Translations under genes and position numbers: made by a program
Notes under the pieces: model-generated
Told to the model about the DNA's origin: nothing
Seen by the model: the letters and a program-made list of their open reading frames with translations, nothing else
The model's database searches: none
Assembly: GCA_044222185.1 (NCBI GenBank)
Contig: JBGANV010000011.1
Coordinates: 32,001 to 96,000, forward strand
Direction: 5' to 3'
DNA length: 64,000 bases
Origin: Planctomycetota bacterium
GTDB lineage: Bacteria > Planctomycetota > GCA-002687715 > CAIWVZ01
Shown: one piece after another, positions 11,249-60,491 of the stretch
Layout: each line of letters opens with the position of its first letter
How positions within the stretch are numbered: the stretch's first letter is position 1

Positions 11249-14200
11249 ATGGCCGAGAGTGATTCGAACAAGCCGGTCATCGCCCGGCCGCGAAGTCTGT
11301 TCATCGCGTATGACACGACCGTCGACTATTTGAAGGACTGTCTGGGCGTCCTCGTCGACTCGGGCGAGCGGATCCGCGACATGCAACCGGTCGTGCTCGC
11401 CCGCACACCGGGTCAGGGCAGCATTCCGGAGAGAGTGCTCACGGGGATCCGTGAAGCGGATGCGTTCCTCGGAGTTCTCGACCGACCGAATGCGAACGTC
11501 GGCTTCGAACTCGGATACGCGTTGGGCAACGACAAGCCGTCGTGGTTGATGCGATTCGAGGACCGCGCGCACGGATGGCTCAAGGCGCCGCCGCTCGCTG
11601 AACTCGGCGTGCCCTCGTTCACCAACACGGAGGAGCTGCGCAATCAGGTCGGCCAGACGGAGGCGCTACGGCCGCCCGGCGCACCTGCGACCGGCGGATC
11701 GGAGGTCCTGTTCCTTTGCCCCACGAGCGGGCGCGGAGCGACTCTGCGCGAGAAGGTCAAAACCAGTGCGAAGGGTTGGACGGCATTCGATCACGCAGCC
11801 TGGAGCCTGACCGACCTTCCGAAACGTCTCGATCGCGTCGGCACTGTGGTCTGGGCGTACGTTCCGCCGGACCCAAACAAGGAATCAGCTGAACGCGACG
11901 GCATCGAGAACGCGATCCTCGCGATCCTCGCCGGCTACGCGCGCGGCAGCGGTCGCAGCCTCAAGTTCTGGCACTACGGCGACCTCACGAAGACCCGGAC
12001 GCTGGTCGACGTCTCCGACTCGTGGCGCGAGATCAAGAACTTCGATGCGATCCCGGCTGCGATCCTGGATGTGGAGCACGACCGCGCGGCGAACGAATAC
12101 CGCGCTGCCGTCGAGGACTATCGAACGCGTGCAGCCGATGCATTCCGCACGTTCCGACCGCTGGGGTTCGAGGGGCGCTTCCGGATCGACGTGCGACTCG
12201 ACGAGTTGTTCTTCGAAATGGCGTGCCGTCATCGGATATCCCGTGCGAGCGGTCGCGATGGGCTCGGTGAAATGGAACGCCACGGCGGCATTCCGCTCAC
12301 GAAGTCGTTCGACCCGATCGGAACTGACGACGCGCCGGACGGAGTCCTACTCCTCGGTGAACCCGGAGCGGGCAAGACGACGCAACTGCGCCGGCTCCTC
12401 CGCTGGGTTGCGCCAGCCAGGTCTGCGGACGCGCGGGGCGCACTCGACGGCGCCGTCCCGTTCCTCGTCAGCCTGCGCGACATCAACCCGGCCCAGCCGG
12501 AGGCAGAACTGACGCCGGAGGCCATCGCAAAGCGAGCGATCCGCGCGGCCGGAGCGCAAGCCGCGGCAGGGCGCGTGCGCGACATCCTCGAACGCGAGAA
12601 GCCACTCTTTCTCCTCGACGGGCTCGACGAGATCCGCGACTCGAATCAACGGGCAGCCGTCGCCAAGGCGGTCGTCAAGCTCTCCAAGACTGCGCGCGTC
12701 ATCGCGACGTGCCGGTTCGCGGGCTACGACGCGGTCAAGAGCACGTTCGAAAACCGTTTCCTCCTGCTCGAGGTTCCGTCACTGACGAAAGACCAGGCCG
12801 AGGCGTTCGTCCTCCGCTGGTATCAGGCGGTCGAGACGGCAGGAGACATCGACGATCGCGAGAAGCGCCTCGCCGACGCCGCCCAAAAGGCCGCCGAGCT
12901 CAACGCAAGCATCGCCGCCGAGAACATCATCACGTCGAAGCGCCTCCAAGACCTGTCCGGCAATCCGCTGCTTCTCACAGCCGTCTGCCTCGTGCATCGG
13001 GACCTGCAGCGCCTGCCCATTGGCCGCGGCGAGCTCTACGAGCTTTGCGTCAAGGCGCTCATCGAGCTTTGGACGCGTAACAAGGAAGTGAAGCTCGACC
13101 TCGACGCGGCGAAGGCGCAGCTTGCGTTGCAGCGCATGGCGTTGTGGCTTCACCAGGAGACGGATCGGCAGTCGGCCACAGTCGATCAGCTCCGGGCGGA
13201 GATCGAGCCGACGCTGCGCCGCCACGGTTGGCGGACTGGGCTCGCCAACTTCCTCGCACACATCCGCGACGAGACGGGTCTCTTGACGGATGCTGTCGGT
13301 GGCGGGTTCAAGTTTCTGCATCTCTGCTTCCAGGAGTACCTCGCGGCATGTGAGATCCAGCGACGCGCCATCGACGAGCCGGAACGCATCGACAGCCTCG
13401 CGTCGCACTTCGGCGAGAGCTGGTGGCAGGAGGTCGCCGGCATCCTCGTGGCGCTGAAGGGGTCCGACTGTTTCCATCGCTATTTCCGCTCGGTCGTCCG
13501 GAACCCGAGCTTCGGCGACACGGCGCACACGGAGGTGGCTCGCTCCTGCGTTCGCGATGCACGCGATCCGACGCCCGAGCCCTTCGTGGACTGCCTGCTC
13601 GGTGAGGAACCGACGAACGACGGCGCCATGCGGTGCCACATCGCCGCCGCCACGATCGTCGTGGATCGATTCCCCGACGAAGTGCCCGTGATTCGCGAGC
13701 GCTTCGTGGAGACACCGCACAAGAGCGACTACGTGCTGGAGCTCTTCGGCGTCGCGGCTCGGACACCGCTCGTAACGGTCTCGGCGCCCGAGGTTTTCAT
13801 CACCCCCAACGGTGGCTGCGAACTCGTTCGCATCCCCGCCGGCACTTTCCTCATGGGCTCACCCGAATCGGAGGCAAATCGCCAGGGAAACGAAGGCCCG
13901 CAACACCGAGTCACGTTGACACGAGACTTCTACATAGGACGCTTCCCCGTCACGAACGCGCAATACGCCCTGTTTCTCCGGTCGCATGAGAAGCCGGACG
14001 TGGTGGAGGAACCGAGCCATTGGCGAAGTCAGCGGTTCAACGAACCTGATCAGCCCGTCGTTGGCGTCAGCTGGGACGACGCGACCGCGTTCTGCGTCTG
14101 GGCGGGAACGAACACGCTCGCACCGCTCGAAGGTCGGCTGCCGACGGAGGCGCAGTGGGAGTACGCGTGTCGGGCTGGGACAGAGACGCCATACTGGTCC

Positions 14201-14584
14201 GGAAACGACGTCGGCGCGCTAGACCAGGTCGGGTGGTTCGACAAGAACACGCTCGGCAGGACCAAGCCCGTGGGTCTAAAGCCCGCGAACCGGTTCGGTC
14301 TCCATGACACGCATGGGAGCGTGTGGGAGTGGTGTGCCGACCCATTCGGGCCATACGGTGAAGAAGAAGTAGTTGACCCATCGTGCGGCGACAGCGTCGC
14401 GGCGGCCCACTACGCCCAAGTCGAGGCGCTGTGGGTCGACGGGGCCGCGCGCGTGCTCCGCGGCGGATCGTGGGGGGTTGGTGCTGCGAGGTGCCGTTCC
14501 GCCGCCCGGTTTTGGAGCCGCCCCGACTTCAGGTTCGACGTGTTCGGCTTCCGCCTGGCTCTGTCCGTCATTCAACCTCGGTAA
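11249..14584 (+). CDS. NLR-like protein: tandem NDT/TIR-like domains + NACHT NTPase + FGE-sulfatase/C-type lectin domain (paralog A)
   Basis: ADAFLGVLDRPNANVGFELGYA (NDT/TIR-like), Walker A GEPGAGKT, Walker B LFLLDGLDE, GNPLLL, FLHLCFQEYLAA, then FLMGS...RLPTEAQWEYACRAG...RVLRGGSW...GFR. ATG 11249 after GGGAG; TAGAAT at 11206. Confidence 0.92.
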   Translation: MAESDSNKPVIARPRSLFIAYDTTVDYLKDCLGVLVDSGERIRDMQPVVLARTPGQGSIPERVLTGIREADAFLGVLDRPNANVGFELGYALGNDKPSWLMRFEDRAHGWLKAPPLAELGVPSFTNTEELRNQVGQTEALRPPGAPATGGSEVLFLCPTSGRGATLREKVKTSAKGWTAFDHAAWSLTDLPKRLDRVGTVVWAYVPPDPNKESAERDGIENAILAILAGYARGSGRSLKFWHYGDLTKTRTLVDVSDSWREIKNFDAIPAAILDVEHDRAANEYRAAVEDYRTRAADAFRTFRPLGFEGRFRIDVRLDELFFEMACRHRISRASGRDGLGEMERHGGIPLTKSFDPIGTDDAPDGVLLLGEPGAGKTTQLRRLLRWVAPARSADARGALDGAVPFLVSLRDINPAQPEAELTPEAIAKRAIRAAGAQAAAGRVRDILEREKPLFLLDGLDEIRDSNQRAAVAKAVVKLSKTARVIATCRFAGYDAVKSTFENRFLLLEVPSLTKDQAEAFVLRWYQAVETAGDIDDREKRLADAAQKAAELNASIAAENIITSKRLQDLSGNPLLLTAVCLVHRDLQRLPIGRGELYELCVKALIELWTRNKEVKLDLDAAKAQLALQRMALWLHQETDRQSATVDQLRAEIEPTLRRHGWRTGLANFLAHIRDETGLLTDAVGGGFKFLHLCFQEYLAACEIQRRAIDEPERIDSLASHFGESWWQEVAGILVALKGSDCFHRYFRSVVRNPSFGDTAHTEVARSCVRDARDPTPEPFVDCLLGEEPTNDGAMRCHIAAATIVVDRFPDEVPVIRERFVETPHKSDYVLELFGVAARTPLVTVSAPEVFITPNGGCELVRIPAGTFLMGSPESEANRQGNEGPQHRVTLTRDFYIGRFPVTNAQYALFLRSHEKPDVVEEPSHWRSQRFNEPDQPVVGVSWDDATAFCVWAGTNTLAPLEGRLPTEAQWEYACRAGTETPYWSGNDVGALDQVGWFDKNTLGRTKPVGLKPANRFGLHDTHGSVWEWCADPFGPYGEEEVVDPSCGDSVAAAHYAQVEALWVDGAARVLRGGSWGVGAARCRSAARFWSRPDFRFDVFGFRLALSVIQPR
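14450..14584 (+). repeat. Candidate DGR variable region (VR-A)
   Basis: Collinear with 14939-15073 (-), 45 codons each including the stop. Between RVLRGG and GFR the amino-acid differences are confined to canonical CLec variable positions. Confidence 0.6.
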
Positions 14585-14854
14585 AGCCTCGACGTTCGAT
14601 CGTCGGGTTGCGTCGAGCTCGAGCGACAGCGTCGGTAGGAAGTGGACTCCGTCGTGCCCGACCGAGGGACGCCCGTGCCACCGGCATCTCACCGAATGAT
14701 GCGCTGCTGCCCCCTGGGCGCCCGGAACGGCGGCTCGTAGCCCCGTTGCGGCCCGTCGCGGATCACCGGGGGTCAGGTAGCGGGTCGGCTTCCCGGAGAA
14801 TGCGTCAGGCTGGCGATGTCGCCGGAGCGACCGCCATGTCACGTCAGCGGCAAA

Positions 14855-14938
14855 GCACCTCGGGTAGCCGGCGGAATCCGCGGGTCGGAGGTGCCACCGC
14901 CGGATTCAACCACACACCAAAGATCGAACATCGAACAT
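14855..14938 (-). other. Heptad repeats and inverted repeats immediately 3' of paralog B (candidate DGR homing/cruciform element or terminator)
   Basis: After TAG: ATGTTCG ATGTTCG ATCTTTG GTGTGTG. Inverted repeats GCACCTC (14855-61)/GAGGTGC (14888-94) and CCGGCGG (14868-74)/CCGCCGG (14897-903). Confidence 0.5.
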
Positions 14939-15073
14939 CTATCGAGCTCGGGGGAGGGACAGGACGAAGCGGAAGCCGATGAAGACGAGCCGGCCGTCCG
15001 GGAGGCTCCCGAACCGCGCGGCGGAGCGGCACCTCGCGGCGCCGCTCCCCCACGAGCCGCCGCGCAGCACGCG
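14939..15073 (-). repeat. Candidate DGR variable region (VR-B)
   Basis: Variable-position codons AGC GGC, TTC GGG AGC CTC, GGC, CTC GTC TTC ATC can all be derived from AAC/AGG/ATC by changing adenines only. Confidence 0.7.
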
Positions 15074-18000
15074 GGCGGCGGACCGGTCGTTGCCTTTCGG
15101 GTCTTGTTGTGGGTCGGCTGAATAGGCGCTGAACCCGTCGGCACACCACTCCCACACGTTGCCGTGCATGTCGTACAGGCCGAAGCCGTTCGGCCGTTTC
15201 TCACGAACCTCAGGCGGGCGCCCGCCTGAGGTTCCGGAGAACCACCCCACCGCGCTGAGAGCCGCGGGGTCGTCGCCAGACCAATACGCCGAAGACGTCC
15301 CGGCTCGACACGCGTACTCCCACTGTGCTTCGGTCGGCAATGCGCCGATGAAACCCGTTGGTGCCGCCCTTCCGGCCCAATCGCAGAACGCCTTGGCATC
15401 GTGCCAGGACACGCCGACGACGGGTTGCAGGGAGCTGTTGAATCGCTTGTCGCGCCAATATGCGGGCTCACTCACCGACGTGGGCTTGTCGGTGGACTTC
15501 AGAAACTCGGCGTACTGCTCATTCGTGACGGGAGACCGTCCAATGTAAAACTCGCGCGTCAGTGTCACGGAATGCTGGGGGCCCTCGGAGTCCCTGCGGC
15601 CAGGCTCCCCCTCGCGCGACCCCATCATGAACGTGCCGCAAGGGATCAGCGCCAACTCCAAGCGGGCTCTTCCGAGCACGAGAGTCAGGGGTTCTGCCGG
15701 AGTGGTTCGGACCGCTGGCGTCTCCGCCACTAACAAGCGCTGGCTCTTCGCGGCTCCGCGTGCGACCCGCTTGGTGAGCGTCTTCTGTATAGGGAGCTCA
15801 AGCGCCTCCTGAATCGCGCGATACGGGTGAGGCTTCTTCGCGAACCGCTCTTTCAACCCGCGAAGTTCTTCGGGCCATCTCCATTTGAGGAGTTCGAGAG
15901 CGGCCAGTTGTCGAGGCCATTCGCTCCGACGCGTCGATGGCCGCGCCTGGAGAGTCTTGAGGAAAGGATCCGGCGACGGCTTCGTTGCGTCCTGAACGGC
16001 ATCCTTCAGGAACGTCAGGTTCGCCGCGTCACCAAACGCCGGCAATTTCGCTGCGGCCTCGAAGTACGACCGAAATGGCGTCGATTGTTTCTGGGCCAGG
16101 AGAAGCGCCGTCACTTCCTGCCACCAGCTCTCGTGGAGCCGTGCGGCCAGGTTCGGAATGGCCTTCCGGTCATCGAACGCTTGCTGATGCAGCTCGCACG
16201 CCGCGAGGAACTCCTGAAAGCACAGGTGGAGGAACTTGAACCCACCCCCGATGGCGTCGGTGACGAGCCCCGTCTCGTCGCGGATGTGTTCGAGGAACGG
16301 TGCTACGCCCTTGTCCCATCGCAGGCGCCGCAGAGGCTGATCGAGAACCGGCTCGAGATCCTCGGTCGTCGCCGACTGCCGCCCCTGCTCCTGGTGAAGC
16401 CAGAGCGCCAGTTGCTGGAGAATCGACTGAGCATCGGCCGTCGACATGTCGAGGCCGGACTTCTTGTCGCGCGTCCACTGCTCGAGAAGGATCCGAACGC
16501 AGAGCTCGTAGAGCTCGGCGCGACCATTCGGCAGGCGCTTGACGTCGCGGTGCACGAGACACACGGCCGTGAGCAGGAGCGGATTGCCCGTGAGGTCACG
16601 AAGCCCCTTCGCGCGGTTACCAGCGGCGATCTCGGCGTTCAGGCGCGCGGCGGTGTCGCGAGCGCCGGTCACGGCCTTCGCACGGTCAGGCACCTCCCCC
16701 GCCGTCTCCACGGCCTCGTACCAGCGCACGACGAACGCGTCGGCCTGTTCGGCGTTGAGAGCCGGGACTTCGAGCACGAGGAATCCGTCTTCGAAGCTCG
16801 ACTTCACGGCTTCGTAGCCGGCGTAGCGGCACGTCGCCGCCACTCGATGCTTCTCAGCCAGCGCGACGACGGCCTTCGCGGCGGAGACGCGCTGCTTGGG
16901 ATCGCGGATTTCGTCGAGACCATCGAGCAGCAGGAGGAGGTTCTCCGACCGCACGATCTCGTCCACATCCTTCGAGGACGGCTGAATGCCCACAGCCTTG
17001 ATGGCGCGTGTGACGAGCGCCTTCGCGGTCAGCTGATCGCCTGCGTGCTTCGGATCGATGTCTCTCAGGCTGACGAAGATCGGAAGCAGCCCGTCGAGGG
17101 CGCTGCCACTTTCGGTCCTCTGCCTCGAAGCCACCCAGCGAAGCAGGCGACGAAGTTGCGTCGTCTTGCCCGCGCCGGGCTCGCCGAGCAGGATGACCCC
17201 GCGGCACGCCGCCAGCTTCCCGATCCGGTCGAAGGCCTTCGCCAGGGGAATACCGCGGCCGTCGAGATCGCGATCGCCGACGGCGCGATGCCGGCAGTTC
17301 ATATCGAAGAACAGCTCGTCGAACCCGATCTCGACACGGAAGCGCCCCTCGAATCCGAGCGGGCGGAACGTTCGAAACGCCTCCGCCGCCCGCTTGCGGT
17401 AATCCTCGACGGCGGCGGTGTACTCGTCCTTGCCCCGCATCGCCTCGACGGTGGCGACCTCCTTTTTCACGGCCTTGAAGTCGGGAAGCAGGCGGCGGAT
17501 TCCGGACAGATCGGCGAGCAGACGATCCTCGCCCAGCACGCCGTAGTGCCAGAACTTCAATCCAAGCCCCCGGCCATGGGCGTAACCGGCGAGGACGGCG
17601 AGCGCAGCATTCTCGTCGCCGTCGCGGACGTCCGCCGGGGTCGGCGGGACGTAGGCCCACACGACCGTGCCCACGCCGTCGAGCAGCCGCGGCATGTCTG
17701 ACAGCGACCATTCGTCCTCATCGAACGGAACCCACCGGGGGGCATCCCCGCGAAGGCGCTCGCGGAGGTCTTGACCGGCGCCGGTCGTCGGACAGAGCAG
17801 CAGGAGCTTCGGTCCGCGCGGCGGCGGCGACGCGAGCTTTGGAAGCGGGTCCTGCGCCTCGACGATCTCCCGCAACTCACTCGCACTCGTGAACGGCGGA
17901 ATGAGTTGCGTCCTCAACGGGACCTTCTCGAGAAACGGTTCACGCCCTTTCGCGAAGGAGGCGAGCCAGGTGGGCTTGTCGAAGGCGAGCGCATAGCCGA

Positions 18001-18262
18001 GTTCGAACCCGACGTTGGCATTGGGCCGATCGAGGACGGCGACGAACCCGTCAGCCTCGCGGATCGGTCCGAGCACGTGCTCATCCGGTATGTTCCCTTG
18101 GGCGCCCGCCAAGCCCGGGACGATCGCGCGCATGTCCCGCACGCGCTTCTCAGGATCGGCCACATTGCTGAGGAGGTCTTTGATGCGCCTGACCGACATG
18201 TCGTAGGCGATGAACAGCCGCGGACCGGTCACGACGGCCGGCGCGGGGTCAGGTGCGGGCAT
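14939..18262 (-). CDS. NLR-like protein: tandem NDT/TIR-like domains + NACHT NTPase + FGE-sulfatase/C-type lectin domain (paralog B)
   Basis: Same motif order as paralog A (DRPNANVGFELGYA, GEPGAGKT, LLLLDGLDE, GNPLLL, FLHLCFQEFLAA, LPTEAQWEYACRAG, DMHGNVWEWC, RVLRGGSW). True start ATG 18262 (GGAGA SD, TACAAT upstream), not 18661. Confidence 0.92.
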   Translation of the reverse strand: MPAPDPAPAVVTGPRLFIAYDMSVRRIKDLLSNVADPEKRVRDMRAIVPGLAGAQGNIPDEHVLGPIREADGFVAVLDRPNANVGFELGYALAFDKPTWLASFAKGREPFLEKVPLRTQLIPPFTSASELREIVEAQDPLPKLASPPPRGPKLLLLCPTTGAGQDLRERLRGDAPRWVPFDEDEWSLSDMPRLLDGVGTVVWAYVPPTPADVRDGDENAALAVLAGYAHGRGLGLKFWHYGVLGEDRLLADLSGIRRLLPDFKAVKKEVATVEAMRGKDEYTAAVEDYRKRAAEAFRTFRPLGFEGRFRVEIGFDELFFDMNCRHRAVGDRDLDGRGIPLAKAFDRIGKLAACRGVILLGEPGAGKTTQLRRLLRWVASRQRTESGSALDGLLPIFVSLRDIDPKHAGDQLTAKALVTRAIKAVGIQPSSKDVDEIVRSENLLLLLDGLDEIRDPKQRVSAAKAVVALAEKHRVAATCRYAGYEAVKSSFEDGFLVLEVPALNAEQADAFVVRWYEAVETAGEVPDRAKAVTGARDTAARLNAEIAAGNRAKGLRDLTGNPLLLTAVCLVHRDVKRLPNGRAELYELCVRILLEQWTRDKKSGLDMSTADAQSILQQLALWLHQEQGRQSATTEDLEPVLDQPLRRLRWDKGVAPFLEHIRDETGLVTDAIGGGFKFLHLCFQEFLAACELHQQAFDDRKAIPNLAARLHESWWQEVTALLLAQKQSTPFRSYFEAAAKLPAFGDAANLTFLKDAVQDATKPSPDPFLKTLQARPSTRRSEWPRQLAALELLKWRWPEELRGLKERFAKKPHPYRAIQEALELPIQKTLTKRVARGAAKSQRLLVAETPAVRTTPAEPLTLVLGRARLELALIPCGTFMMGSREGEPGRRDSEGPQHSVTLTREFYIGRSPVTNEQYAEFLKSTDKPTSVSEPAYWRDKRFNSSLQPVVGVSWHDAKAFCDWAGRAAPTGFIGALPTEAQWEYACRAGTSSAYWSGDDPAALSAVGWFSGTSGGRPPEVREKRPNGFGLYDMHGNVWEWCADGFSAYSADPQQDPKGNDRSAARVLRGGSWGSGAARCRSAARFGSLPDGRLVFIGFRFVLSLPRAR

Positions 18263-18565: not shown

Positions 18566-19513
18566 ATGCGGCCGAAGCCCACTCGTTTCCTGTTGCCACT
18601 TGCCGCGCTTTCCGTGCTGATCGCGGCCAGCGTCGTCCCACGCAGCGCGAATGAAAATCAACCGAATGCACCCACCGCCCGACCCGCGAAAGATGGCGTG
18701 ACCATCGCGCTGGCCGACTGGCCGGCGTCACAGGCCGCTCGCCGCGGCCGGGTGGTTTACGAGGAGAACTGCATCGGGTGCCACGGTCAGGAAGGCAAGG
18801 GCGACGGCCCCGCATCCCTCAACCTGAATCCCGTGCCGCGCAACTTCCAGAAGGCCAAGTTCAAGTTCCGCTCGTCCGAGTCGGGACAGCTGCCCTTCGA
18901 AGAGGACCTGCTGCGAACCGTCGAATGCGGCCTGCCGGGCTCGTCGATGCCGGGCTTCCCGCTGCTGCCTCAGCAACAGCGCAAGGATGTGGTCGCCTAC
19001 GTCCTCGACGTGGCCGTCTTCGGACGAGCCAAGGTCCTGGCGGAGGCACAGGCTCAGGATGAAGGCCTCACCCGCGAGCAACTCGTGGCGAAGATGCCCG
19101 AGCTCGCTGAGAAGACCCGCGCGAGTCAGCTCGGCGGGCGCAAGAAGGTGATCGTTCCGCCGGCCGTGCCGGCGACGCCCGAGCTCATCGAGCGCGGTCG
19201 CCAGCTGTATGCGAAGCAGTGCGCATCCTGCCACGGAGACACGGGTCGCGGCGACGGCACGTCAGCCTTCGCACTCCGCGACTGGTCGGACGCGGAGATC
19301 CGCCCGCGTGACTTCACGACCGGCGTGTTCCGCGCGGGCAGCACCGCACAGGACCTGTTCCTGCGCATGCGCACCGGGCTCAACGGAACACCCATGCCCG
19401 CGTCCAACGAGAACGACGAGACCGTGTGGTCCATCGTTCATTACATCCTCAGCCTCAAGACCCCAGGCACCATCCCGAACACGCGACGGATGGGCTGCGA
19501 CCGCGGGAACTGA
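18566..19513 (+). CDS. Diheme cytochrome c associated with cbb3 oxidase
   Basis: Signal/anchor, two CxxCH motifs (CIGCH, CASCH), each followed by PRNF/PRDF and a distal Met (SSMPGF, TPMPA). Confidence 0.9.
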   Translation: MRPKPTRFLLPLAALSVLIAASVVPRSANENQPNAPTARPAKDGVTIALADWPASQAARRGRVVYEENCIGCHGQEGKGDGPASLNLNPVPRNFQKAKFKFRSSESGQLPFEEDLLRTVECGLPGSSMPGFPLLPQQQRKDVVAYVLDVAVFGRAKVLAEAQAQDEGLTREQLVAKMPELAEKTRASQLGGRKKVIVPPAVPATPELIERGRQLYAKQCASCHGDTGRGDGTSAFALRDWSDAEIRPRDFTTGVFRAGSTAQDLFLRMRTGLNGTPMPASNENDETVWSIVHYILSLKTPGTIPNTRRMGCDRGN

Positions 19514-19515
19514 CC

Positions 19516-20967
19516 ATGACATCCATAGCTGCAACACTCGAATCTGCTGGGGCCGTGGATCAGCCCCTCGTTCACAAGAAACTGGTCCAGTGGCACCTCA
19601 TCTGCGGCTTGTTCTTCTTCCTCACGTCCGTCGTGTGGGGAGCGCTGTTCTCGCTGCAGTTCCTCGACCTCTACCCGCTCCAGGGCATCTCGTTCTTCAG
19701 CCCGGGCCGCGTGCGCCTCTTGCACACGAACGAAGTGGCCTACGGGTTCCTCGTGAACGGCTTCCTCGGAATCCTCTACTACGTGATTCCCCGCCTGACG
19801 GGCCGCCCGGTCCTGAGCGAAAAGCTCGGGTGGCTCATCCTCGTCGTCTGGCAGACCGTGACGCTGCTGACCTCCATCGGCCAGTTGCTCGGGTTCACCC
19901 AGGCCATCGAGTGGGGTGAGACGCCGACGGGATTCCGCCCGGGCTCGTGGGACCTGAACTACGTCCCGGTGGACTTCCTCATCGAGCTGGGAGCGATCCT
20001 GGTCGCGCTCCAGTTCCTCACTCCGATCTTCAAGTCCGTCCACCAGCGCATGTACGTGTCGCTCTGGTACTACTCGTCGGGAATCGTGTGGCTCATCCTC
20101 ACCTACGTGATGGGCAACACGCTCGGCGAGTGGGTCTTCGCCGGCAGCTCGGGCGCGGCGACGGGAGGACTGTTCATTCACGACCTCGTCGGGCTGTTCG
20201 TGACGCCGATGGGTTGGGGATCGATGTACTTCTTCGTGCCGATCATCCTGCGCAAGCCCATCTGGAGCCATGCGCTGTCGGTCATCGGATTCTGGGCGCT
20301 CGCGTTCTTCTATCCGTTGAACGGCGTGCACCACTTCCTCCTGTCATCGATCCCCATGTCGGTGCAGTACGGCGCGGTCATCTCCACGATGGCCGTCGAG
20401 ATCGTCGTCACCACCGTGATCGTCAACTTCTTCGGCACCATGTGGGGAAGCGGCCACGCGCTGCGCAGCAACCTCCCCATCCGCTGGTTCTACACGGGCA
20501 TGGTCCTCTACTTCATCACGTGTCTGCAGTGCGCCTTCCAGACGACGCTGACGTTGCAGGAGATCATCCACTTCACGGACTGGGTCCCGGGACACGCGCA
20601 CCTCGTCATGCTCGGCGTGTTCGCGTTCTGGATCATCGGCGTGACGACGTGGCTGTGGCCGCGCCTCACCGGCAACGAGTGGTACAGCCGGCACCTGAAC
20701 GGTTGGCACTACTGGCTGTCGACGATCGGGCTCTTGATCATGTTCCTCGATCTGCTCTCGGCAGGTCTCGTGGCGGGCTACATGCAGAAGAACCTCTCGC
20801 CGTGGCTGCAGATCCTGTCCGCGCTCAAGCCGTTCTGGTGGATCCGCGGATTCGCGGGCGCCATGATCGTCGCGGGCCAGTTCATCTTCGCCTGGAACCT
20901 CTACAAGACTGCGCGGACGCCGAAGCCGTACGACTACCGCGTCGACCTCGTGTCGGGAGCTGCGTGA
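19516..20967 (+). CDS. ccoN: cbb3-type (C-family) heme-copper oxidase subunit I
   Basis: Polytopic membrane protein with RLLHTN, IHDLVG, FYPLNGVHHF and TDWVPGHAH histidine ligands. Followed by ccoO. ATG 19516. Confidence 0.92.
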   Translation: MTSIAATLESAGAVDQPLVHKKLVQWHLICGLFFFLTSVVWGALFSLQFLDLYPLQGISFFSPGRVRLLHTNEVAYGFLVNGFLGILYYVIPRLTGRPVLSEKLGWLILVVWQTVTLLTSIGQLLGFTQAIEWGETPTGFRPGSWDLNYVPVDFLIELGAILVALQFLTPIFKSVHQRMYVSLWYYSSGIVWLILTYVMGNTLGEWVFAGSSGAATGGLFIHDLVGLFVTPMGWGSMYFFVPIILRKPIWSHALSVIGFWALAFFYPLNGVHHFLLSSIPMSVQYGAVISTMAVEIVVTTVIVNFFGTMWGSGHALRSNLPIRWFYTGMVLYFITCLQCAFQTTLTLQEIIHFTDWVPGHAHLVMLGVFAFWIIGVTTWLWPRLTGNEWYSRHLNGWHYWLSTIGLLIMFLDLLSAGLVAGYMQKNLSPWLQILSALKPFWWIRGFAGAMIVAGQFIFAWNLYKTARTPKPYDYRVDLVSGAA

Positions 20968-20968
20968 T

Positions 20969-21835
20969 ATGGACCGCCTCAACCAGATCCTTCTCGTAGC
21001 CGGTCTCGGCTGTTTCGTCTTCGCCTTCCTGCTGTCGGGGCTCTACCCCTACATGATCACGGACGGCAAGACTCCGGAGGCGACGTACGCGCAGGTCGCG
21101 CAGGTCGTCTCGCCTGACTTCAAGGACCTGAAGGACGCCTTCCCGAACGATTTCACGAAGGCGTTCCAGGGTGCGGAAGCAGCGATGACGCCCCGCGAAC
21201 TCGCCACGATCCCCGCCAACGACCCGCGCCGCGCAGGCAGCGAGGACGCGTGGCGCAAGATCTACGCGACGGCGCTCCGTGACGGCCGCGACCTCTACAT
21301 CGCCGAAGCCTGCTGGCACTGCCACAGCCAGTACGTCCGTGCCGTCTCCAACGAGGACGTGCGCTGGGGTCCGCCCAGCACGAGCGAGCAGGACAACAAC
21401 GCCCTGCAGCGCCCCGTGCTGTGGGGCACTCGTCGCGTCGGTCCGGACCTCACCTATGAAGGCGGCGTCCGGTCGAACGACTGGCACATCGCCCACTTCC
21501 TCGATCCGAAGAGCACGTCGCCCGGTTCGGTCATGCCGGCCTACACGTGGTATTTCGCCTCGGGTTTCGAGGTCCGCCGCAAGGTGGCACCCGACATCGC
21601 CGAACGCGAAGGCATCGCACCGGACAAGAGCTACAGCTACCCCGGCATCTACGACACCAGGCAGGAGGCCGAGCGAGCGATGGAGCAGATCCGCACCTCG
21701 CTGCCGAACACGCTTGCCGGCGAGCGAGATCGCCTGTTCGTCGCGGAGGCCCAGCGGCCGACCGCCAAGCTCCTCTCCCTGATCGCGTACCTCCAGTGGC
21801 TGGGCACGTGGCAGCCGCAGAAGGCGGAGCGCTGA
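20969..21835 (+). CDS. ccoO: cbb3-type oxidase subunit II (monoheme)
   Basis: GRDLYIAEACWHCHSQYVR, LWGTRRVGPDL, SPGSVMPAY. Confidence 0.92.
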   Translation: MDRLNQILLVAGLGCFVFAFLLSGLYPYMITDGKTPEATYAQVAQVVSPDFKDLKDAFPNDFTKAFQGAEAAMTPRELATIPANDPRRAGSEDAWRKIYATALRDGRDLYIAEACWHCHSQYVRAVSNEDVRWGPPSTSEQDNNALQRPVLWGTRRVGPDLTYEGGVRSNDWHIAHFLDPKSTSPGSVMPAYTWYFASGFEVRRKVAPDIAEREGIAPDKSYSYPGIYDTRQEAERAMEQIRTSLPNTLAGERDRLFVAEAQRPTAKLLSLIAYLQWLGTWQPQKAER

Positions 21836-21837
21836 AC

Positions 21838-22152
21838 ATGGACCGACCCATCGAGACCTCCCGTCAGAGTGTTCGCCGTCGATGGATCCTCAGGGTCTTC
21901 CTCGTCGGAGCGATCCTCTCCGGCGTCGGATTCGCGGTGAAGATCTTCGAGTTCCTGCAGGACCTGCTGAACTCGAACGGCCTTCACTTCGCCGGCGCCC
22001 ACCTCGCCGTCTACGCCTTCGTCGCGGGCGGCTTCCTTCTGCTCTTGACCTACGGGTTCCTGAAGGGCCACTTCTCCGACATTGAAAAACCGAAGTTCGA
22101 CATGCTCGAACGGGAGATCACCAATGACCGACAAGAGTTCGGGCGATCTTGA
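21838..22152 (+). CDS. Small membrane protein, CcoS/FixS-like C-terminus
   Basis: Two TM helices followed by KGHFSDIEKPKFDML, resembling the FixS GQFDD motif. Located within the cco operon. Confidence 0.7.
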   Translation: MDRPIETSRQSVRRRWILRVFLVGAILSGVGFAVKIFEFLQDLLNSNGLHFAGAHLAVYAFVAGGFLLLLTYGFLKGHFSDIEKPKFDMLEREITNDRQEFGRS

Positions 22153-22312
22153 GGCCGCGGCCGGCAGCGATCAGAAGGAGTACCCGTTCGGGTACGGCCA
22201 CGGACGCATGCCGTTCTTCATGAAGGTCGTGTGGGTTGCCTTCCTGGCCTTCTGCACCTGGTACATCGTTCAATACCTGTTGACCGCCGTTGGCAAGGAA
22301 CTCGCGAAGTGA
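22124..22312 (+). CDS. Small single-TM cbb3 accessory protein (CcoQ- or CcoP-N-terminus-like)
   Basis: 62 aa: EYPFGYGHGRMPFFMKVVWVAFLAFCTWYIVQY. Overlaps both neighbours. Confidence 0.6.
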   Translation: MTDKSSGDLEAAAGSDQKEYPFGYGHGRMPFFMKVVWVAFLAFCTWYIVQYLLTAVGKELAK

Positions 22313-24476
22313 ACCGCACGACGAACGATTCCACTCGCAAGCGGAGTCGTTCGTCTGCACGCACTGCGGACTGGAGATACCGGTCCGCAGTCGCAGCGTG
22401 GCGCCCACGCCCGGGCAGCCGCTTTTTTGCTGCGTAGGCTGTCGCCTCGCCGCGGCCGTCGGCGGTCGCACGGACGGTGTCCGCAAGTTCCTCGAGGCGC
22501 GCCTCCTCCTTTCCGCGTTCCTCTCCATGGGCGTCATGGAGTTCACGCTCGTTCTTTACGGCGAGGGGTTCTACGACGTGGCCTCGGATCCGTCGGCGGC
22601 ACTCTTCCGGCGCCTGGGGCAGTTCGGCATCGCCGCCTTCGCGTTCCCTGTGATGCTGCTGCTCGGCGTGCCGCTCATGCGCGGCGCGTGGGCCGATCTG
22701 CGCCAAGGCCTGGTGCGCATGGACGGACTCATCGTCATCGGCACCGTTGCCGCGTTCGCGCTCTCGGTCTACCACACGATCATCGGCGTCGGCCAGGTGT
22801 ACTACGAGACGGCGACCATGGTCCTCGTGCTCGTGATGTTCGGGCGGCGGCTCGAGGCGCACGCTCGGTCGCAAGGGCGCGAGGCCGCGAAGGCCCTTCG
22901 ACTCGCGCTTCCCGAACGCGCACACCGCGTGACGTCCGCCTCCGAGACGGCTGACGTGGATGCGGATGCACTCGTCGCGGGCGACCGGATCCGGATCCTT
23001 CCCGGGGAGAACATCCCGGCCGACGTGCGGATCGACGCAGGGTCGAGCGCCGTCGTCGCCAGCCACCTGACGGGCGAGGAACGGCCCGTCGACGTGACCA
23101 CCGGAGCGGACGTCCCCGCTGGCGCGATCAACGGATTCGGTGCGCTCGATGCCACCGTCGTGCGACCGTGGCGCGACGGGGGTCTCGGGCGGATCCTCGC
23201 GCACCTGGACTCCCCTCTCCCGCCGACGCGACTGAGCCGGCTCGTGGATCGCATCGCGACGCACCTCGTGTGGATCTCGTTGGCGCTGGCGATCGTCGGC
23301 GGAATCCGCTCCGGCTTGCTCGGCGGCGCGGGCGCCGGACTGCGAACGGCCCTCTCCGTGCTCGTGGTCGCCTGCCCATGCGCCCTCGGGCTCGCGACGC
23401 CGCTGGCGTTTCGGGCCACGCGCGCCTCACTCGCGCGGCGGGGCGTACTCGTTCGCGATCCGGTGGCGATGGAGGTTGCGCCATCCATCGGCGCCGTCCT
23501 CCTCGACAAGACCGGCACGCTGACGTCGCCCGCGCCCAAGTTGCGCGCGACCGCCGCCAGTGATCCGGCCGCGTTCGCATGTCTGCGGACGCTCGTCAGC
23601 CACTCGGGACACGCGCTCGGCGCCGGACTCGACCGCTCCGGTGCGGCACCGGCGCAGCTTCGAGTCGTTCCGGGGTGCGGCGTCGAAGGCGTCGTCGACG
23701 GAGTGTTCGGCCGTGCCGGCAGTCCGCGCTGGCTCCAATCCCTCGGGGCGACGGCGTCCGCGGCGTTGGGGGCCGAACTCGCGGAGATCCAGGCGAGTGG
23801 CGACTCGGCGATCGCGTTCGCCTCCGACGGCACCGTCCGCGCCGTCGCGGCCGTCGCACACGAGATCCGCCCCGGCGCGCGGGAGATGGTCAACGCGTTC
23901 CGCCAGCGCGGGATCCAAGTGGAGATCGCATCCGGCGATCGCAAATCCGCCGTCGCGGACGTCGCCGCCAGTCTCGGGATCGGCTTTCTCGCCGAGCTCG
24001 CTCCGGATCAGAAGCTCGCGCGGCTCGAAGCGATTCGGGCGAGCGGGTTGCGCGTCATGTCGGTGGGTGACGGCGTCAACGACGCCCCCATTCTTCGCGC
24101 GGCCGACGTGGGCGTGGCGGTGGCGACCGGGACGGCGGTTGCGCGCTCGCAGGCCCAGGTCGAGATCGTTGGCGACGACCTGCGAGGTCTGTGGCGGTTC
24201 CACCAGTCATCCGTCACGTTGAAGCGGACGGTCTACGGCAACATCGCGTGGTCGCTCATCTACAACGGCGCGGCGCTGGCGTTCGCGACCATGGGCCGCC
24301 TCCATCCGGCGGTCGCCGCGGCGGCCATGGTGATCTCGAGCGTCGTCGTGAGCGTACGCTCCTACCGGTTGATGGAGCCCGCGCCGGCACCGGTGAATCC
24401 AGCGCCGGCATCGGAGCACGGCCGCCAGTCTGTACCGCCGCAGCCATCCGCCCTGGCGACGGGGGCGACACCATGA
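22290..24476 (+). CDS. ccoI: P1B-type heavy-metal (Cu) ATPase, CcoI/FixI-like
   Basis: N-terminal CTHC...FCCVGC, LTGE, ACPCALGLATP, DKTGT, GDGVNDAP. TTG start. Confidence 0.88.
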   Translation: MARNSRSEPHDERFHSQAESFVCTHCGLEIPVRSRSVAPTPGQPLFCCVGCRLAAAVGGRTDGVRKFLEARLLLSAFLSMGVMEFTLVLYGEGFYDVASDPSAALFRRLGQFGIAAFAFPVMLLLGVPLMRGAWADLRQGLVRMDGLIVIGTVAAFALSVYHTIIGVGQVYYETATMVLVLVMFGRRLEAHARSQGREAAKALRLALPERAHRVTSASETADVDADALVAGDRIRILPGENIPADVRIDAGSSAVVASHLTGEERPVDVTTGADVPAGAINGFGALDATVVRPWRDGGLGRILAHLDSPLPPTRLSRLVDRIATHLVWISLALAIVGGIRSGLLGGAGAGLRTALSVLVVACPCALGLATPLAFRATRASLARRGVLVRDPVAMEVAPSIGAVLLDKTGTLTSPAPKLRATAASDPAAFACLRTLVSHSGHALGAGLDRSGAAPAQLRVVPGCGVEGVVDGVFGRAGSPRWLQSLGATASAALGAELAEIQASGDSAIAFASDGTVRAVAAVAHEIRPGAREMVNAFRQRGIQVEIASGDRKSAVADVAASLGIGFLAELAPDQKLARLEAIRASGLRVMSVGDGVNDAPILRAADVGVAVATGTAVARSQAQVEIVGDDLRGLWRFHQSSVTLKRTVYGNIAWSLIYNGAALAFATMGRLHPAVAAAAMVISSVVVSVRSYRLMEPAPAPVNPAPASEHGRQSVPPQPSALATGATP

Positions 24477-25147
24477 CCGTCGCTGCCGCACTCGTCACGG
24501 GGTTCCTCTTCGCGCTCGTGAACGCGGCGCACTGTGCCGGCATGTGTGGCGCGTTCGCGCTGCGGACCACGGCGTCGCCGCCGGCGTTCGCGCGGTTCTC
24601 GCTCTATGGCGCGGGCAAGCTCTTCACGTACATGTTCCTCGGATCGCTCGCGGGATTCCTCGGCGCCTCCGTCCTCAAATTCGGGGGACGCGCGCAGGTC
24701 GTGCTCGGGGTGGCCGTCGGCGCATGGCTCGCGCTCGCGGGAATCCGACTCCTCCGCAATCGGGCCGGCGCAACGGCCGGAGGTGCGGCGCTCGGTCAGT
24801 TTCTGCAACCGATCCTCGGAGGCATCAGGGAGGGCGAACTCCCCGGCGGCACGTTCGCCCTCGGTGCACTGACGAGCCTCCTCCCATGCGGTGTCGTGTA
24901 CGCGGCCGCGCTGCAAGCGGCGGCCACCGGAAATGTGCTGAGTGCCGTCGCGCTCATGTTCGGCTTCGGCGCGGGAACGTTGCCCGCCCTGGCTGGTGTC
25001 GCGTGGGTGGGTCGGGGATTCTCACGCCGGATCCCGGCCGCGGCATTTCGCCTGTTCGCCGGATCGATCATCCTTCTCATGGCTGCCGTGACGATCACTC
25101 GAGCGGTCATGCCACTTTTCACGAAGACAGGGTCATGCTGCCACTGA
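24473..25147 (+). CDS. DsbD_2/TauE-like membrane protein of cbb3 assembly clusters
   Basis: HCAGMCG and LLPCGVVY motifs, FGAGTLP. ATGA overlap with ccoI. Confidence 0.88.
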   Translation: MTVAAALVTGFLFALVNAAHCAGMCGAFALRTTASPPAFARFSLYGAGKLFTYMFLGSLAGFLGASVLKFGGRAQVVLGVAVGAWLALAGIRLLRNRAGATAGGAALGQFLQPILGGIREGELPGGTFALGALTSLLPCGVVYAAALQAAATGNVLSAVALMFGFGAGTLPALAGVAWVGRGFSRRIPAAAFRLFAGSIILLMAAVTITRAVMPLFTKTGSCCH

Positions 25148-26127
25148 AGGACGTGGACCGCGTTCGCGTGCTCTCCGCCGTCGCCAAGCGTGGGGCCGTG
25201 TTTCAGGTCGTGCGGATCGCCGTCATCACGGCGTCCCTCGCGATCCTGCTCGCGATCCCCCTCTGCGAGCTGGTACGCATCGATCTCTGGCGCGGCCACC
25301 ACATCCTCCTCGGCCGCCAGGTCGACATCATCGCGGGGCTCAAGGGGTTCTGCGTCGCCATGGCGGTGCTCTACGGCCTGACGTTCCTGACGAACATGGT
25401 CGTCGGTCGGTTCTTCTGCGGATGGGGGTGCCCCGTCGGATACGTGAGCCGGCTCGGTGAGGACGTGGACCTGAAGAAGGGCAAGCGCCGCCGAGTGCTC
25501 AAGCATCTCGCCGGCGCGGGATTCGTCGCGACGTTCGTGGCGGCGGTCATGCTGTGGTGGGTCGATCCGCGCGTCATGGTCGACGGCTCGATGACGGCGC
25601 GGCTCGTCACAGCGGGCGTGTTCGTCGCTCTGTGGGCTGGTGGGTTCCTCCACGCGTTCGTCTGGCGGTTCGGGTTCTGCCGCAGTGTCTGCCCCATCGG
25701 GATCTACTACCAGTACGTCACCTCGAAGGCGCCCATCGGCATCGTGTTCGAGGAGGTGCCCAATCCCTGCATCCACTGCGGCGCGTGTGAGAAGGTCTGC
25801 CCCGTCGACCTGGATCCAAAGGCGCTCGGACATGAGATCCCCGACTCGGTGATCGAGACCGTCGACTCGGAGCCCGTCCGCTACGGCGACGCCGAGTGCC
25901 TGCGCTGCGGCGACTGCATCGAGGCCTGCAAGATGGTGTTTGCGAAGGACGAGACGGCCATCCCGCCGCTGCGGTTCGGGAAACTTCACGACGAGATCGG
26001 CAAGCCGCCCGAGGGTGGTGCCTGCCCGACGTCGAGCGCGCCGCGCAAGGCGATCGGAACGAGGCCGAAGACCGCGGAACGGCATCCGACCGCGCCGGTG
26101 AGCGACGAGATCAGCAGGCCTCGCTGA
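25135..26127 (+). CDS. ccoG: Membrane 4Fe-4S protein, CcoG/FixG-like
   Basis: GRFFCGWGCP, FCRSVCP, CIHCGACEKVCP, CLRCGDCIEAC. Confidence 0.82.
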   Translation: MLPLKDVDRVRVLSAVAKRGAVFQVVRIAVITASLAILLAIPLCELVRIDLWRGHHILLGRQVDIIAGLKGFCVAMAVLYGLTFLTNMVVGRFFCGWGCPVGYVSRLGEDVDLKKGKRRRVLKHLAGAGFVATFVAAVMLWWVDPRVMVDGSMTARLVTAGVFVALWAGGFLHAFVWRFGFCRSVCPIGIYYQYVTSKAPIGIVFEEVPNPCIHCGACEKVCPVDLDPKALGHEIPDSVIETVDSEPVRYGDAECLRCGDCIEACKMVFAKDETAIPPLRFGKLHDEIGKPPEGGACPTSSAPRKAIGTRPKTAERHPTAPVSDEISRPR

Positions 26128-29392: not shown

Positions 29393-29475
29393 GGCCGGAG
29401 TTTCGATCGCACGAAAAGCGCGCGCCGCATCGCCGGCCGCGCACGGATGCGTTGCTTCGAAGGAAGGACCGAATC

Positions 29476-40800: not shown

Positions 40801-41529
40801 CGCGTGAACGAGCGCGTCGACGAGGCCGCGGCCGCCATGGAGCGTGCCGATGGCCTGTGGAGTGCGATCGTCGCCGCCGATCCGACCCACGGCGAGGCCC
40901 GCCACGCGCACACCGTGTGCGTGAGCGACCTCGCGGAGATTCGCTACGCCCAGGATCGTTTCGCGGACGCCATCGCCGGCTACACGAAGGCCATCTCGGT
41001 GGCGGCTGCGGGCGCGGCAGCTGCGCCCACGGACGGTCGCTGGTTGCGGTCCCTCCTCATCGCACGAGTCGGCCTGTCGAAATCCTGCCTGGCGTCCGGC
41101 AAGGTCGACGAGGCGGTCGAGGCCGGCGCGGCCGCCATGAAGGATGCGGAGCGGTTCCTCGGCGTCGTGCCGGAGAACGCCGACACGCTCGCCGGCGCCC
41201 ACCGTGCCGTCTCCGCGTGGGGCATGGCGCTCGCCAAAGCCGACCGGGCCGAGGAGGCCGTCGGACCGATCAAGGCGCGCATCGATCACGTCGACGCGAT
41301 CGCGGCGAAGTTCACGGGCGACGCGAAGATGCAGCGGCTGCGTGCCGTGGTACGCCTCGACTATGCGGAGACTCTCCGCAACGCCGACCGGGCCGCGGCG
41401 GCCCGCGACGTCGTCACGGAAGCGCTGGGGATCCTCCGCGCGATCGAGAAGGATCCGCAAGCTGACGCGCTGAAGCTCCCGCTCCTGATCAAGGCCGCCG
41501 AGAGCATGCTCGGCGAGGATCCGGAGTAG
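37882..41529 (+). CDS. Membrane Ser/Thr kinase with C-terminal TPR array
   Basis: IGRGGMGVVY, VALK, HRDLKPSN, MDWG, GTPVYMAPE. TM segment (AVLSIVIGLTVGIVLL), then TPR helices. Confidence 0.93.
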   Translation: MAPEPSRPGERPAEPDGDFLRTQWIRTLGEGTNPRTASPSLSYRPRRTNTPGGVTSTPGSASSLGLRPPRAAPSGAGPTLSKLRVDARLVPGFELLDEIGRGGMGVVYRALQQSLDREVALKMIIDPAARDATAERFFTEAMITGFLEHPNIVPVYDVGETRDGRCYLAMKLVEGRSWRQALRAREVPETLVTPIGDDESITTHDGDEPRQPRLLPAPPPADLDRNLRILLDVCDAVAFAHSRGVIHRDLKPSNVMVGEFGEVLLMDWGIAMPSVGNRTLEDLDSCEPTFESPSGTPVYMAPELALGQVHLMGPWTDVYLLGAILYELLTGRPPHDHPTLPDAVDAAARSDPPRFDPVVPKELAALVEASMTRRPQDRITSVEEFRHRLDAHLKHRESILIAEPAANALRRATSAAAQRSAAGRGSGRAPFHEPFAEAIAGFTQALTLWPENPAAKCGLADARVAFAEAALNHGDLGLAEAQTAVVEDPARRATLESAVARARTAAARRARTEYWLRRALAGAVLSIVIGLTVGIVLLAREQDATRDALERETTEHGRAEARFNDIRGLAKSLLFEIHDAVEKLPGATPARELIVQRALEYLDRLNQSTGDDERLLAEMATAYERVAGVQALYLVGNLGHSEAALESLERSQRIRKRIVELTHGSADAQGALAAGRTKTAEILLRLGKLTEARHELDLAILELEATRETRTDHAQALSDLARAYARHSALERDTGAMARAVADQRHAVALHAELSRFLAKTADVDTERDEIEAIAALAELLRRSGDAQGSWTELKRAIEMARSLVTRSPNDAAAQRTLAGVLESAERTARQAADRTAGIAYQIEALAIRERLREMDPRNVQAMADLGGALAALGDAHAANGDDQAALDVHKRWLAAATAWLEADPGNVGATRDVRLAYERIGNDYLGLGRIDEAVATYREQIANAERRAQAAPGDARAQFDLANGLTHLGTALRVNERVDEAAAAMERADGLWSAIVAADPTHGEARHAHTVCVSDLAEIRYAQDRFADAIAGYTKAISVAAAGAAAAPTDGRWLRSLLIARVGLSKSCLASGKVDEAVEAGAAAMKDAERFLGVVPENADTLAGAHRAVSAWGMALAKADRAEEAVGPIKARIDHVDAIAAKFTGDAKMQRLRAVVRLDYAETLRNADRAAAARDVVTEALGILRAIEKDPQADALKLPLLIKAAESMLGEDPE

Positions 41530-60033: not shown

Positions 60034-60491
60034 GTCGTGCTCGGCGTACCGTCGACAGGATGCCGCAGGATCCCGATCATCTGGCCGTTTTTTTCGAAGG
60101 TCGGGGTTGCGATTGGCACGCCGCCGCGGGGCTTTGGCGCCACGGGTCGGCGGCGACGACGGCGCACCGGGGCCGGGCCGACCTGTCGAGGGCGGCGGCG
60201 GGGGGCCGGTTCCGCCGCATGCCGGCGGGATTGACGGGAGGCGGGCGCCGAAGGAGGCCGTCAGCGGAGCACCGGCGCTCGCACGCCCCCGGCGGGGCCG
60301 GTGGACGGTCCGCGCCCGGCCGCCTGGGCTCACGCCGCAAGCGAGCGCGGAGGAAGCGTGGGGGCAAAAAAAGACCGTCGCGCCAACTCGAGGGTGGGCT
60401 CGAGGCTGGCGCGACGGAAGCACGATATTGCGGCTACGCCTTCCACCCCGTGCCGTTGAACGGGGCCGTCGGCGAGCCGCGGGCACTCACA

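Follow-up and report, generated by a model that had tools for sequence, protein, structure and literature searches.

Two convergent genes, A and B, in a 64,000-nucleotide stretch of DNA from a Planctomycetota bacterium (assembly GCA_044222185.1, contig JBGANV010000011.1, positions 32,001 to 96,000; here called the window) encode NACHT receptors that carry a C-type-lectin-fold (CLec) domain at the C-terminus and, at the N-terminus, a module of two successive domains of the nucleoside deoxyribosyltransferase (NDT)/TIR fold. The predicted catalytic glutamate is present in domain 1 and absent from domain 2. The receptor class has already been described from genomics; no publication was found that describes the active/inactive twin module, which is represented in 223 clusters and for which no Pfam family reaches its cut-off. 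On balance, the two fused halves probably behave as a pseudo-heterodimer that shares a single composite active site and acts as a nucleotide N-glycosidase, likely one that cleaves nicotinamide adenine dinucleotide (an NADase), switched on by NACHT oligomerization.

The process could run in the following way. Binding of a ligand to the lectin tip would cause NACHT oligomerization, as STAND proteins suggest, and the oligomerized modules would meet through a second co-evolving face, which would turn the enzyme on. Glu87 of domain 1 would serve as the nucleophile, and Asp254, in a loop of domain 2, would take the place of the residue that the partner subunit gives in related homodimers. Cleavage of NAD+ or another nucleotide at the site formed by E87 and the domain 2 loop would then lead to cell arrest or death (abortive infection).

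Complementary residues of a predicted active site

A first-pass annotation, made by a model from the sequence alone, had proposed both genes as candidate immune receptors, quoting LFIAYD and IREAD.F..VLDRPNANVGFELGYA from domain 1 and VGTVVWAY...ENA.LA.LAGYA from domain 2. All of these motifs are present in both paralogs, with E87 in A and B and a leucine at the glutamate column of domain 2 (L227 in A, L224 in B). E87 is kept in 186 of 203 homologs, among which D22, D78, N81, N83 and W110 of domain 1 are near-invariant. In alignment with DNPH1, E87 falls on the nucleophile and N81 on the phosphate-binding serine (residue roles from PMC10603095). The absence of the glutamate from domain 2, which the annotation had noticed in the two paralogs, extends throughout the family: column 227 is V, I or L in 183 of 192 rows.

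Across homologs domain 2 conserves a set of its own, W202, R216, D217, G218, N221, R250 and D254. The last of these, D in 161 of 192 rows, sits 27 residues past the dead glutamate column, and the equivalent loop of domain 1 has no aspartate. In bacterial TIR-STING, an essential aspartate donated by the partner, D110, lies 26 residues past E84 (PMC9402430), and DNPH1 dimerizes via its third helix, with S128′ supplied by the partner subunit (PMC10603095). E220 was considered as a relocated nucleophile of domain 2 and rejected, being E in only 130 of 192 rows.

Fold and distribution of the twin module

A structure model of residues 1–284, built from 120 aligned rows, consists of two five-stranded α/β domains with a predicted local distance difference test score (pLDDT) of 92.9 and a predicted template modeling score (pTM) of 0.91; a single-sequence prediction with pLDDT 40 was discarded. 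The closest folds to domain 2 are RCL/DNPH1 (Z 10.7, root-mean-square deviation 2.6, 112 aligned residues), RUN1 TIR (10.6) and RPS4/RRS1 TIR (10.3), and those to domain 1 are MilB (Z 8.4), AbTir (8.3) and an NDT (8.2); for neither domain do the Z values separate NDT from TIR. By structure, then, both belong to the TIR-DrHyd-SLOG fold class as defined in PMC9503650, which bears out the NDT/TIR fold that the annotation had assigned to each and had proposed to check by modeling. Foldseek with the two-domain model returned mainly generic α/β matches and a single NDT at rank 16.

Profile comparison places NDT closest to domain 1 (97%, E 7e-11), followed by CAP12-TIR (40%) and, far behind, DUF4062 (0.4%); for domain 2, NDT reaches 37%. 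The two domains align with each other by HHalign with a probability of 39% and E 3e-4, vs 1% for a reversed control. PF05014 (NDT) matches domain 1 alone and below cut-off (about 21.5–25.9 bits vs 28.8, in A and B), and Pfam TIR families have no match in A or B. Domain 2 has no Pfam match in gene A and just single weak unrelated matches among 42 homologs, and it has no credible match among PDB sequences; the nearest ESM Atlas clusters (0.90–0.92) have no Pfam family in common.

How widely is the pairing of the two domains kept? A search with residues 1–284 against 1.84 billion cluster representatives gave 223 cluster proteins at E<=0.001, of which the best 150 were used, one repetitive match (P0154) being dropped from the homolog set. 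Both domains were found in 152 of the 153 scanned proteins, the remaining one being a fragment, and 42 extend into NACHT and FGE domains. Since such a query is biased towards tandems, separate searches were made with domain 2 alone: among 401 genomes of the phylum, 8 yielded matches, 18 in total, a profile search added 19 new proteins, and every one had domain 1 directly upstream (18/18 and 19/19). Stand-alone domain 2 (62–245 amino acids) was absent from 5171 candidates, a weak negative, and none of 24 pattern matches in viral contigs was confirmed. By title, 20 of 38 named genome loci are from Planctomycetota, and the module occurs in just 2 of 40 related genomes, a patchy spread.

A fusion survey covering 125 proteins or regions, a part of all matches, found the module joined also to TPR, Sel1, trypsin, CHAT, HipA, Ser/Thr kinase, TIR, DUF4062, ParA-like and thioredoxin domains, and in two proteins to the adaptor EAD1. 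On NACHT-FGE proteins, a ParA/MinD-like domain or a HipA kinase can precede the module (L002 8807–13060, L019 4156–8517, P0056; L numbers designate loci). In L108 (1743–3844), L036 (9605–10342) and L038 (9956–10339) the two domains lie in separate frames or domain 1 stands alone, which may reflect frameshifts or assembly errors instead of natural splits. Two distinct NDT-family genes, both keeping the glutamate, adjoin in two genomes (L076/L088 and L078/L089). A doubly Glu-less tandem (S-x-S..W-Q/L), fused to DUF4476 where scanned, occurs at L035 (2926–5625), L102, L103, L105 and L106.

Two co-varying faces

Mean-field direct coupling analysis of 203 sequences (effective 182) gave 10 inter-domain pairs with z>5, vs 0 in all 10 controls (five with random pairing and five with neighbor swaps); the alignment is shallow, and some pairs at z 4–5 may be noise. 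The pairs fall into two sets. Set 1 comprises G93-G233 (z 13.6), L116-I226, G85-I226, L116-Y230, A82-V255, P115 with W177 and W185, and N83-D254 (z 4.3). G93 and G233 occupy equivalent positions of helix C, where the combinations are GA in 118, AG in 26, GG in 30 and AA in 7 sequences. This set matches what would be expected of a pseudo-symmetric helix-C dimer in which each loop reaches the pocket of the other half. Set 2 consists of R131-E168 (z 14.3; RE 57, ER 14) and the weaker E128-A164, D30-L166 and E128-D266, joining helices A and E. In the topology of the NDT/TIR fold these helices lie opposite the helix-C face. The two co-varying faces are incompatible in one pose, and therefore one is probably formed within the chain and the other between chains.

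The annotation had regarded the duplicated domain as either an intramolecular pseudo-dimer or an autoinhibitory or ligand-binding partner that is released upon triggering. A defined pair is indeed indicated by the model (pTM 0.91) and by co-variation. A released autoinhibitor is not supported in the form proposed: domain 2 keeps R216, D217, R250 and D254, and its loop after strand 4 co-varies with the neighbors of E87, which would fit completion of the site better than its obstruction.

Composite site, nucleotide sensor or adaptor

A bolder form of the composite-site reading is possible, and we put it forward tentatively. Here the module would be an asymmetric pre-fused NDT/TIR dimer in which one half brings the nucleophile and the other both completes the site and keeps a regulatory nucleotide pocket; head-to-tail polymerization via the second face would follow NLR oligomerization, and doubly dead copies would nucleate stand-alone active ones, altogether an undescribed effector class.

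Domain 2 may instead be an allosteric nucleotide sensor or inhibitor, an idea close to that of the annotation; we consider this rather unlikely as the whole explanation. Domain 1 would then produce or cleave a nucleotide signal under the control of domain 2, in whose own pocket a substrate, product or messenger would be bound. This reading would account for the equal conservation of the two domains between A and B (52% each), for the polar cluster R216-D217-G218-x-E220-N221, for the strong D217-R250 pair (z 10.8) and for co-variation of the invariant W110 loop of domain 1 with W177, W185 and D189 around the pocket, and inactive TIR/DrHyd/SLOG domains have been described as nucleotide sensors (PMC9503650). 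The division of residues, with the glutamate only in domain 1 and the loop aspartate only in domain 2, is explicable without any ligand. A composite site and an allosteric pocket are not exclusive of each other.

That the module is mainly a homotypic adaptor, polymerizing to link a sensor with separately encoded effectors, with catalysis secondary, seems improbable. The range of fusions, to sensors (NACHT-FGE, TPR, Sel1) as well as effectors (trypsin, CHAT, HipA, kinase, TIR), would suit an adaptor, as would the head-to-head arrangement of a Glu-less tandem with a stand-alone Glu-bearing tandem in five loci, and two co-evolving faces permit chains. Against this, about 90% of homologs retain E87, N81, N83 and D22; EAD1, an adaptor in its own right, is found fused to the module; and in this genome the module occurs three times, each time on a NACHT-FGE protein and never on a partner effector.

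Several observations weigh against the composite-site enzyme that we prefer. E87 is missing in 17 of 203 homologs. Of the Tyr-Asp-Glu triad of DNPH1, domain 1 keeps only the glutamate, with Phe18 in place of the tyrosine and Val63 in place of the acid aspartate; judged from these columns it is not a true NDT, and the lack of two triad residues makes its chemistry and substrate uncertain. The N83-D254 coupling is modest (z 4.3 vs 1.3–2.2 in neighbor swaps, with a gap in 17 of 203 rows), and the interfaces are assigned from co-variation and fold topology. The fusions to trypsin, CHAT, kinase, HipA, TIR and thioredoxin resemble those of adaptors or signal makers. PADLOC, which the annotation had recommended as a check, gave no meaningful family match for A or B, and the neighboring genes in the window are of housekeeping type (a two-component system and a cbb3 oxidase operon) rather than a defense island.

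Effector slot and likely substrate

In related loci the convergent partner gene starts with DUF4062 in six of seven cases tested and with TIR_2 in one. In a tree of 29 NACHT modules, from which partial genes were excluded and which is unrooted for the direction of a swap, the NACHTs of A and B nest inside the clade holding all six DUF4062 NACHTs (support 99/100), as sister to that of L012 (96/96) and apart from 20 other tandem carriers. This placement points to an effector swap. A preprint (10.64898/2026.05.01.722283) reports that DUF4062 acts as an NADase against phages, and NAD+ depletion is known also for the NDT-like effector of retron Ec86 (reviewed). By analogy with the occupant of the sister slot and with the Ec86 effector, NAD+ is most likely the substrate of the twin module.

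A probable former retroelement locus

A link of this receptor class to diversity-generating retroelements (DGRs) had escaped the first-pass annotation. Among the genome loci surveyed, 15 distinct ones encode tandem-NACHT-FGE proteins, 7 of which have a reverse transcriptase (RT) gene in the fetched DNA. At five of the seven (L002, L009, L014, L017/L025 and L027) a template matches the tip of the tandem gene with differences almost only at adenines, there being 0–3 other mismatches within the template; relatives of A and B at these five loci are proven DGR targets. An accessory gene, the template and the RT lie in relatives between two convergent targets, and A and B share the layout of L009, L014, L017 and L027. 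A convergent NACHT-FGE partner, as in the window, is present also at four of the eight loci without RT (L012, L019, L020 and L024). In Engelhardtia mirabilis Pla133 (L017 9698–20674 / L025) a single template serves three targets, two tandem-NACHT-FGE and one tandem-kinase-FGE.

Most likely, A and B once formed part of a DGR locus, and their sensor tips now look frozen. In addition to the convergent layout, all eight amino-acid differences between the two tips fall within 17 template-variable codons and none in the other 17 (p 0.003), and the 3′ flank of gene B resembles those of proven targets. Nine synonymous codon differences between the tips indicate that they have long not been rewritten from one template. 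An adenine-tolerant scan, blastn and a template profile found no template for the tips in the assembly; the best non-self match has 24–26 non-adenine mismatches, unlike an active DGR target. Neither RT nor accessory gene, nor an RT remnant, was found on contig C11, and in the 354 bp gap between the genes (14585–14938) tblastx gave low-complexity noise only, with no cassette remnant. No population variant is listed in either tip, contigs being prone to drop rare variants, and one contig from another study spans the tip of A with 0 changes, a weak support for freezing. Two points tell against a former locus: the genome is 93.8% complete, so that a template could be unassembled, and exposed binding residues are also the variable codons, so that a partition of 8/17 vs 0/17 could arise without a DGR.

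The motif 3′ of the variable repeat comprises a C-run, GAGCTC or similar, TTCGATC/TTGACC repeats and TTGA..TGTG. This type of flank is shared by L003, L009, L012, L017, L020, L021, L027, L028 and the window (14910–14955), and a second type, with CTTCACC repeats, by L002, L006, L014, L015, L018, L019 and L024. They are possibly two classes of DGR homing signals.

Elsewhere in the genome, another convergent pair of NACHT-FGE genes flanks an RT and a shortened helix-turn-helix accessory gene (L001 7257–15790; G000:C6, about 199.2–207.8 kb). The RT is of DGR type and no template was found at L001. One gene of the pair starts with DUF4062, and the other bears the third copy of the module and an in-frame stop in its FGE domain; the tips have 12 base differences, 11 of them at codon positions 1–2. 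There are four further RT-like genes in the genome, of which the one on C1 (463 amino acids) resembles by eye a group II intron maturase.

That A and B are the decaying remains of a DGR locus no longer alive, or have a signaling role unconnected with infection, is very improbable. In favor of such a reading, no cassette was found at the locus, the other DGR of the genome is without a template and one of its targets contains a stop, the neighbors are the two-component and cbb3 oxidase genes, and the accessible text of PMC10907252 reports no phenotype for NACHT-CLec proteins. Against it, the two genes retain open frames and every motif although they have diverged by 45%, and nine synonymous differences between the tips mark a long separation without inactivation.

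Gene pair and surroundings

The features of the two genes are listed in Table 1. Both reading frames are open, GGAG lies shortly 5′ of each ATG, and 354 bp separate the stop codons. As the annotation had stated, a NACHT module and an FGE-type CLec domain follow domain 2: PF05729 (NACHT; E 4e-12 in A and 2e-11 in B) and PF03781 (FGE-sulfatase; E 3e-56 and 8e-55) both score above cut-off, and Walker A, Walker B and the sensor arginine are intact in both proteins. With an intact NACHT, a C-terminal FGS/CLec domain and twin folds in the N-terminal effector slot, A and B have the composition of NACHT/STAND-FGS receptors. Their top 19-residue hydropathy is 1.21, from which they are predicted to lack a membrane helix and to be cytoplasmic. 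An active FGE enzyme was considered for the C-terminal domain and rejected, neither CxxC nor CxxxxC, the motifs of active FGE enzymes, being present.

Table 1. Positions, within the window, of the features of genes A and B
Feature	Position	Strand	Remarks
Gene A	11249-14584	+	1111 aa; twin NDT/TIR module, NACHT, helical region, FGE/CLec
Gene A domain 1	11291-11656	+	residues 15-136; NDT/DrHyd-like fold; D22, D78, N81, N83
Gene A E87, predicted catalytic	11507-11509	+	domain 1
Gene A domain 2	11696-12097	+	residues 150-283; fold as domain 1; Leu227 at glutamate column
Gene A domain 2 conserved residues	C157-P158, W202, R216-D217-G218, N221, R250, D254	+	
Gene A D254	12008-12010	+	domain 2
Gene A NACHT NTPase core	12344-12826	+	Walker A GEPGAGKT (K376), Walker B LLDGLDE, sensor ATCR
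Gene A FGE-sulfatase/C-type-lectin-fold domain, predicted sensor	13820-14560	+	
Gene A variable-repeat-like tip	14453-14566	+	assembly without matching template
Gene B 3′ flank motif (CCCCCGAGCTC...TTCGATCTTTG..GTGT)	14910-14955	-	resembles flanks of proven DGR targets; copy of A decayed
Gene B	14939-18262	-	1107 aa; architecture as gene A; 55% identical to gene A
Gene B variable-repeat-like tip	14957-15070	-	
Gene B FGE/CLec domain	14963-15652	-	
Gene B NACHT core	16715-17197	-	Walker A K366
Gene B domain 2	17426-17815	-	L224 at glutamate column; R247, D251
Gene B domain 1	17855-18220	-	E87

Promoter and terminator scans around the genes gave signals at chance level. Contigs from the likely source run span the whole stretch with zero differences, and are not independent support. 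Five other intervals of the window (18566–26127, 26723–32196, 37882–41529, 50395–55356 and 56950–60486) hold a cbb3-type oxidase operon with a P-type ATPase, two FG-GAP repeat proteins, two Ser/Thr kinases, of which one carries FG-GAP repeats, and an extracytoplasmic function-type sigma factor fused to carboxypeptidase-regulatory repeats. Dozens of further FGE-fold genes are spread across most contigs of the genome (G000).

Comparison with known systems

The annotation had not recognized the architecture as a named system. For the receptor as a whole this does not hold, since STAND receptors of the DrHyd+NACHT+FGS type (Kaur et al., 2021, PMC8195603; 'FGS type' bNACHT of Kibby, 2022, 10.1101/2022.07.19.500537) share with A and B a DrHyd/TIR effector, NACHT, FGS/CLec, multiple copies and an association with DGRs; for the twin module it stands. 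DrHyd+NACHT occurs 24 times in file 1 of the source data of PMC8195603, with one convergent pair among them. Unlike A and B, these entries have a single DrHyd, several being annotated as DUF4062, and no active/inactive split is mentioned in the accessible part of that source; 'DrHyd+DrHyd' occurs 0 times in its source data, where 103 'TIR+DrHyd' entries were not compared with the twin module. STAND-FGS proteins with DrHyd or TIR effectors and DGRs appear likewise in PMC10907252 and PMC13581612. The clade 5D DGR targets of multicellular bacteria (Dore et al., 2024, PMC10907252) also come in twos, built around a central NACHT or nSTAND1 together with one CLec, and uncharacterized N-terminal extensions are present in many of them; homologs of A and B are such targets as judged by layout, and the A/B pair differs in that no RT, accessory gene or template was found nearby.

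An active/inactive twin was not found described in the accessible text of the literature searched, which included PMC8195603, 10.1101/2022.07.19.500537, PMC10907252, PMC13581612 and PMC9503650, with bioRxiv supplements lying outside the search, nor in the accessible parts of the preprints 2026.09.16.751991, 2026.09.05.749240 and 2026.10.19.760177; the supplements of PMC13581612 and PMC10907252 gave no match to terms for the module. Retroelement-diversified NACHT-CLec receptors have been proposed as a form of bacterial adaptive immunity, many with unexplained N-termini (PMC10907252). The present analysis puts a name to one of these N-termini and makes predictions at the level of residues (E87, D254, G93/G233 and R131/E168). 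The complete genome of the cultured Engelhardtia mirabilis Pla133 contains three targets together with a template and an RT. Should the module prove to be an NADase, loss of NAD+ would be a simple readout for what the variable tips sense; if the asymmetric pre-fused dimer holds true, DGR-hypermutated lectin tips would gain a direct readout for testing bacterial antigen receptors.

As an enzyme, the twin module is related to several known systems and identical to none of them. NDT, DNPH1 (RCL) and MilB share its fold, the glutamate nucleophile and a helix-C dimer that donates a residue to the partner, but each of them is a symmetric homodimer that has two sites and uses a Tyr-Asp-Glu triad, whereas the module consists of fused unequal halves. 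Bacterial TIR-STING (CAP12/Pycsar-type TIR; Z 9.2) has the N-V-x-x-E-x-G motif, the helix-C dimer and the donated loop aspartate (E84, D110); it differs in its weak profile match to domain 1 (40%), in having one TIR per chain and in its activation by cyclic dinucleotides. DUF4062 (the Swarozyc NADase) and the NDT-like effector of retron Ec86 deplete NAD+ and belong to the same fold class, but both are single domains, and DUF4062 has no profile similarity to the module (0.4%). Among the top fold matches is the plant RPS4/RRS1 TIR heterodimer (Z 10.3), in which an enzymatic TIR pairs with a non-catalytic TIR through helices A and E; these are two separate eukaryotic proteins with 10% identity, and the likeness is an analogy only. 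Fusion of a catalytic fold with a non-catalytic twin of itself would be a different route to the gating of TIR/NDT enzymes.

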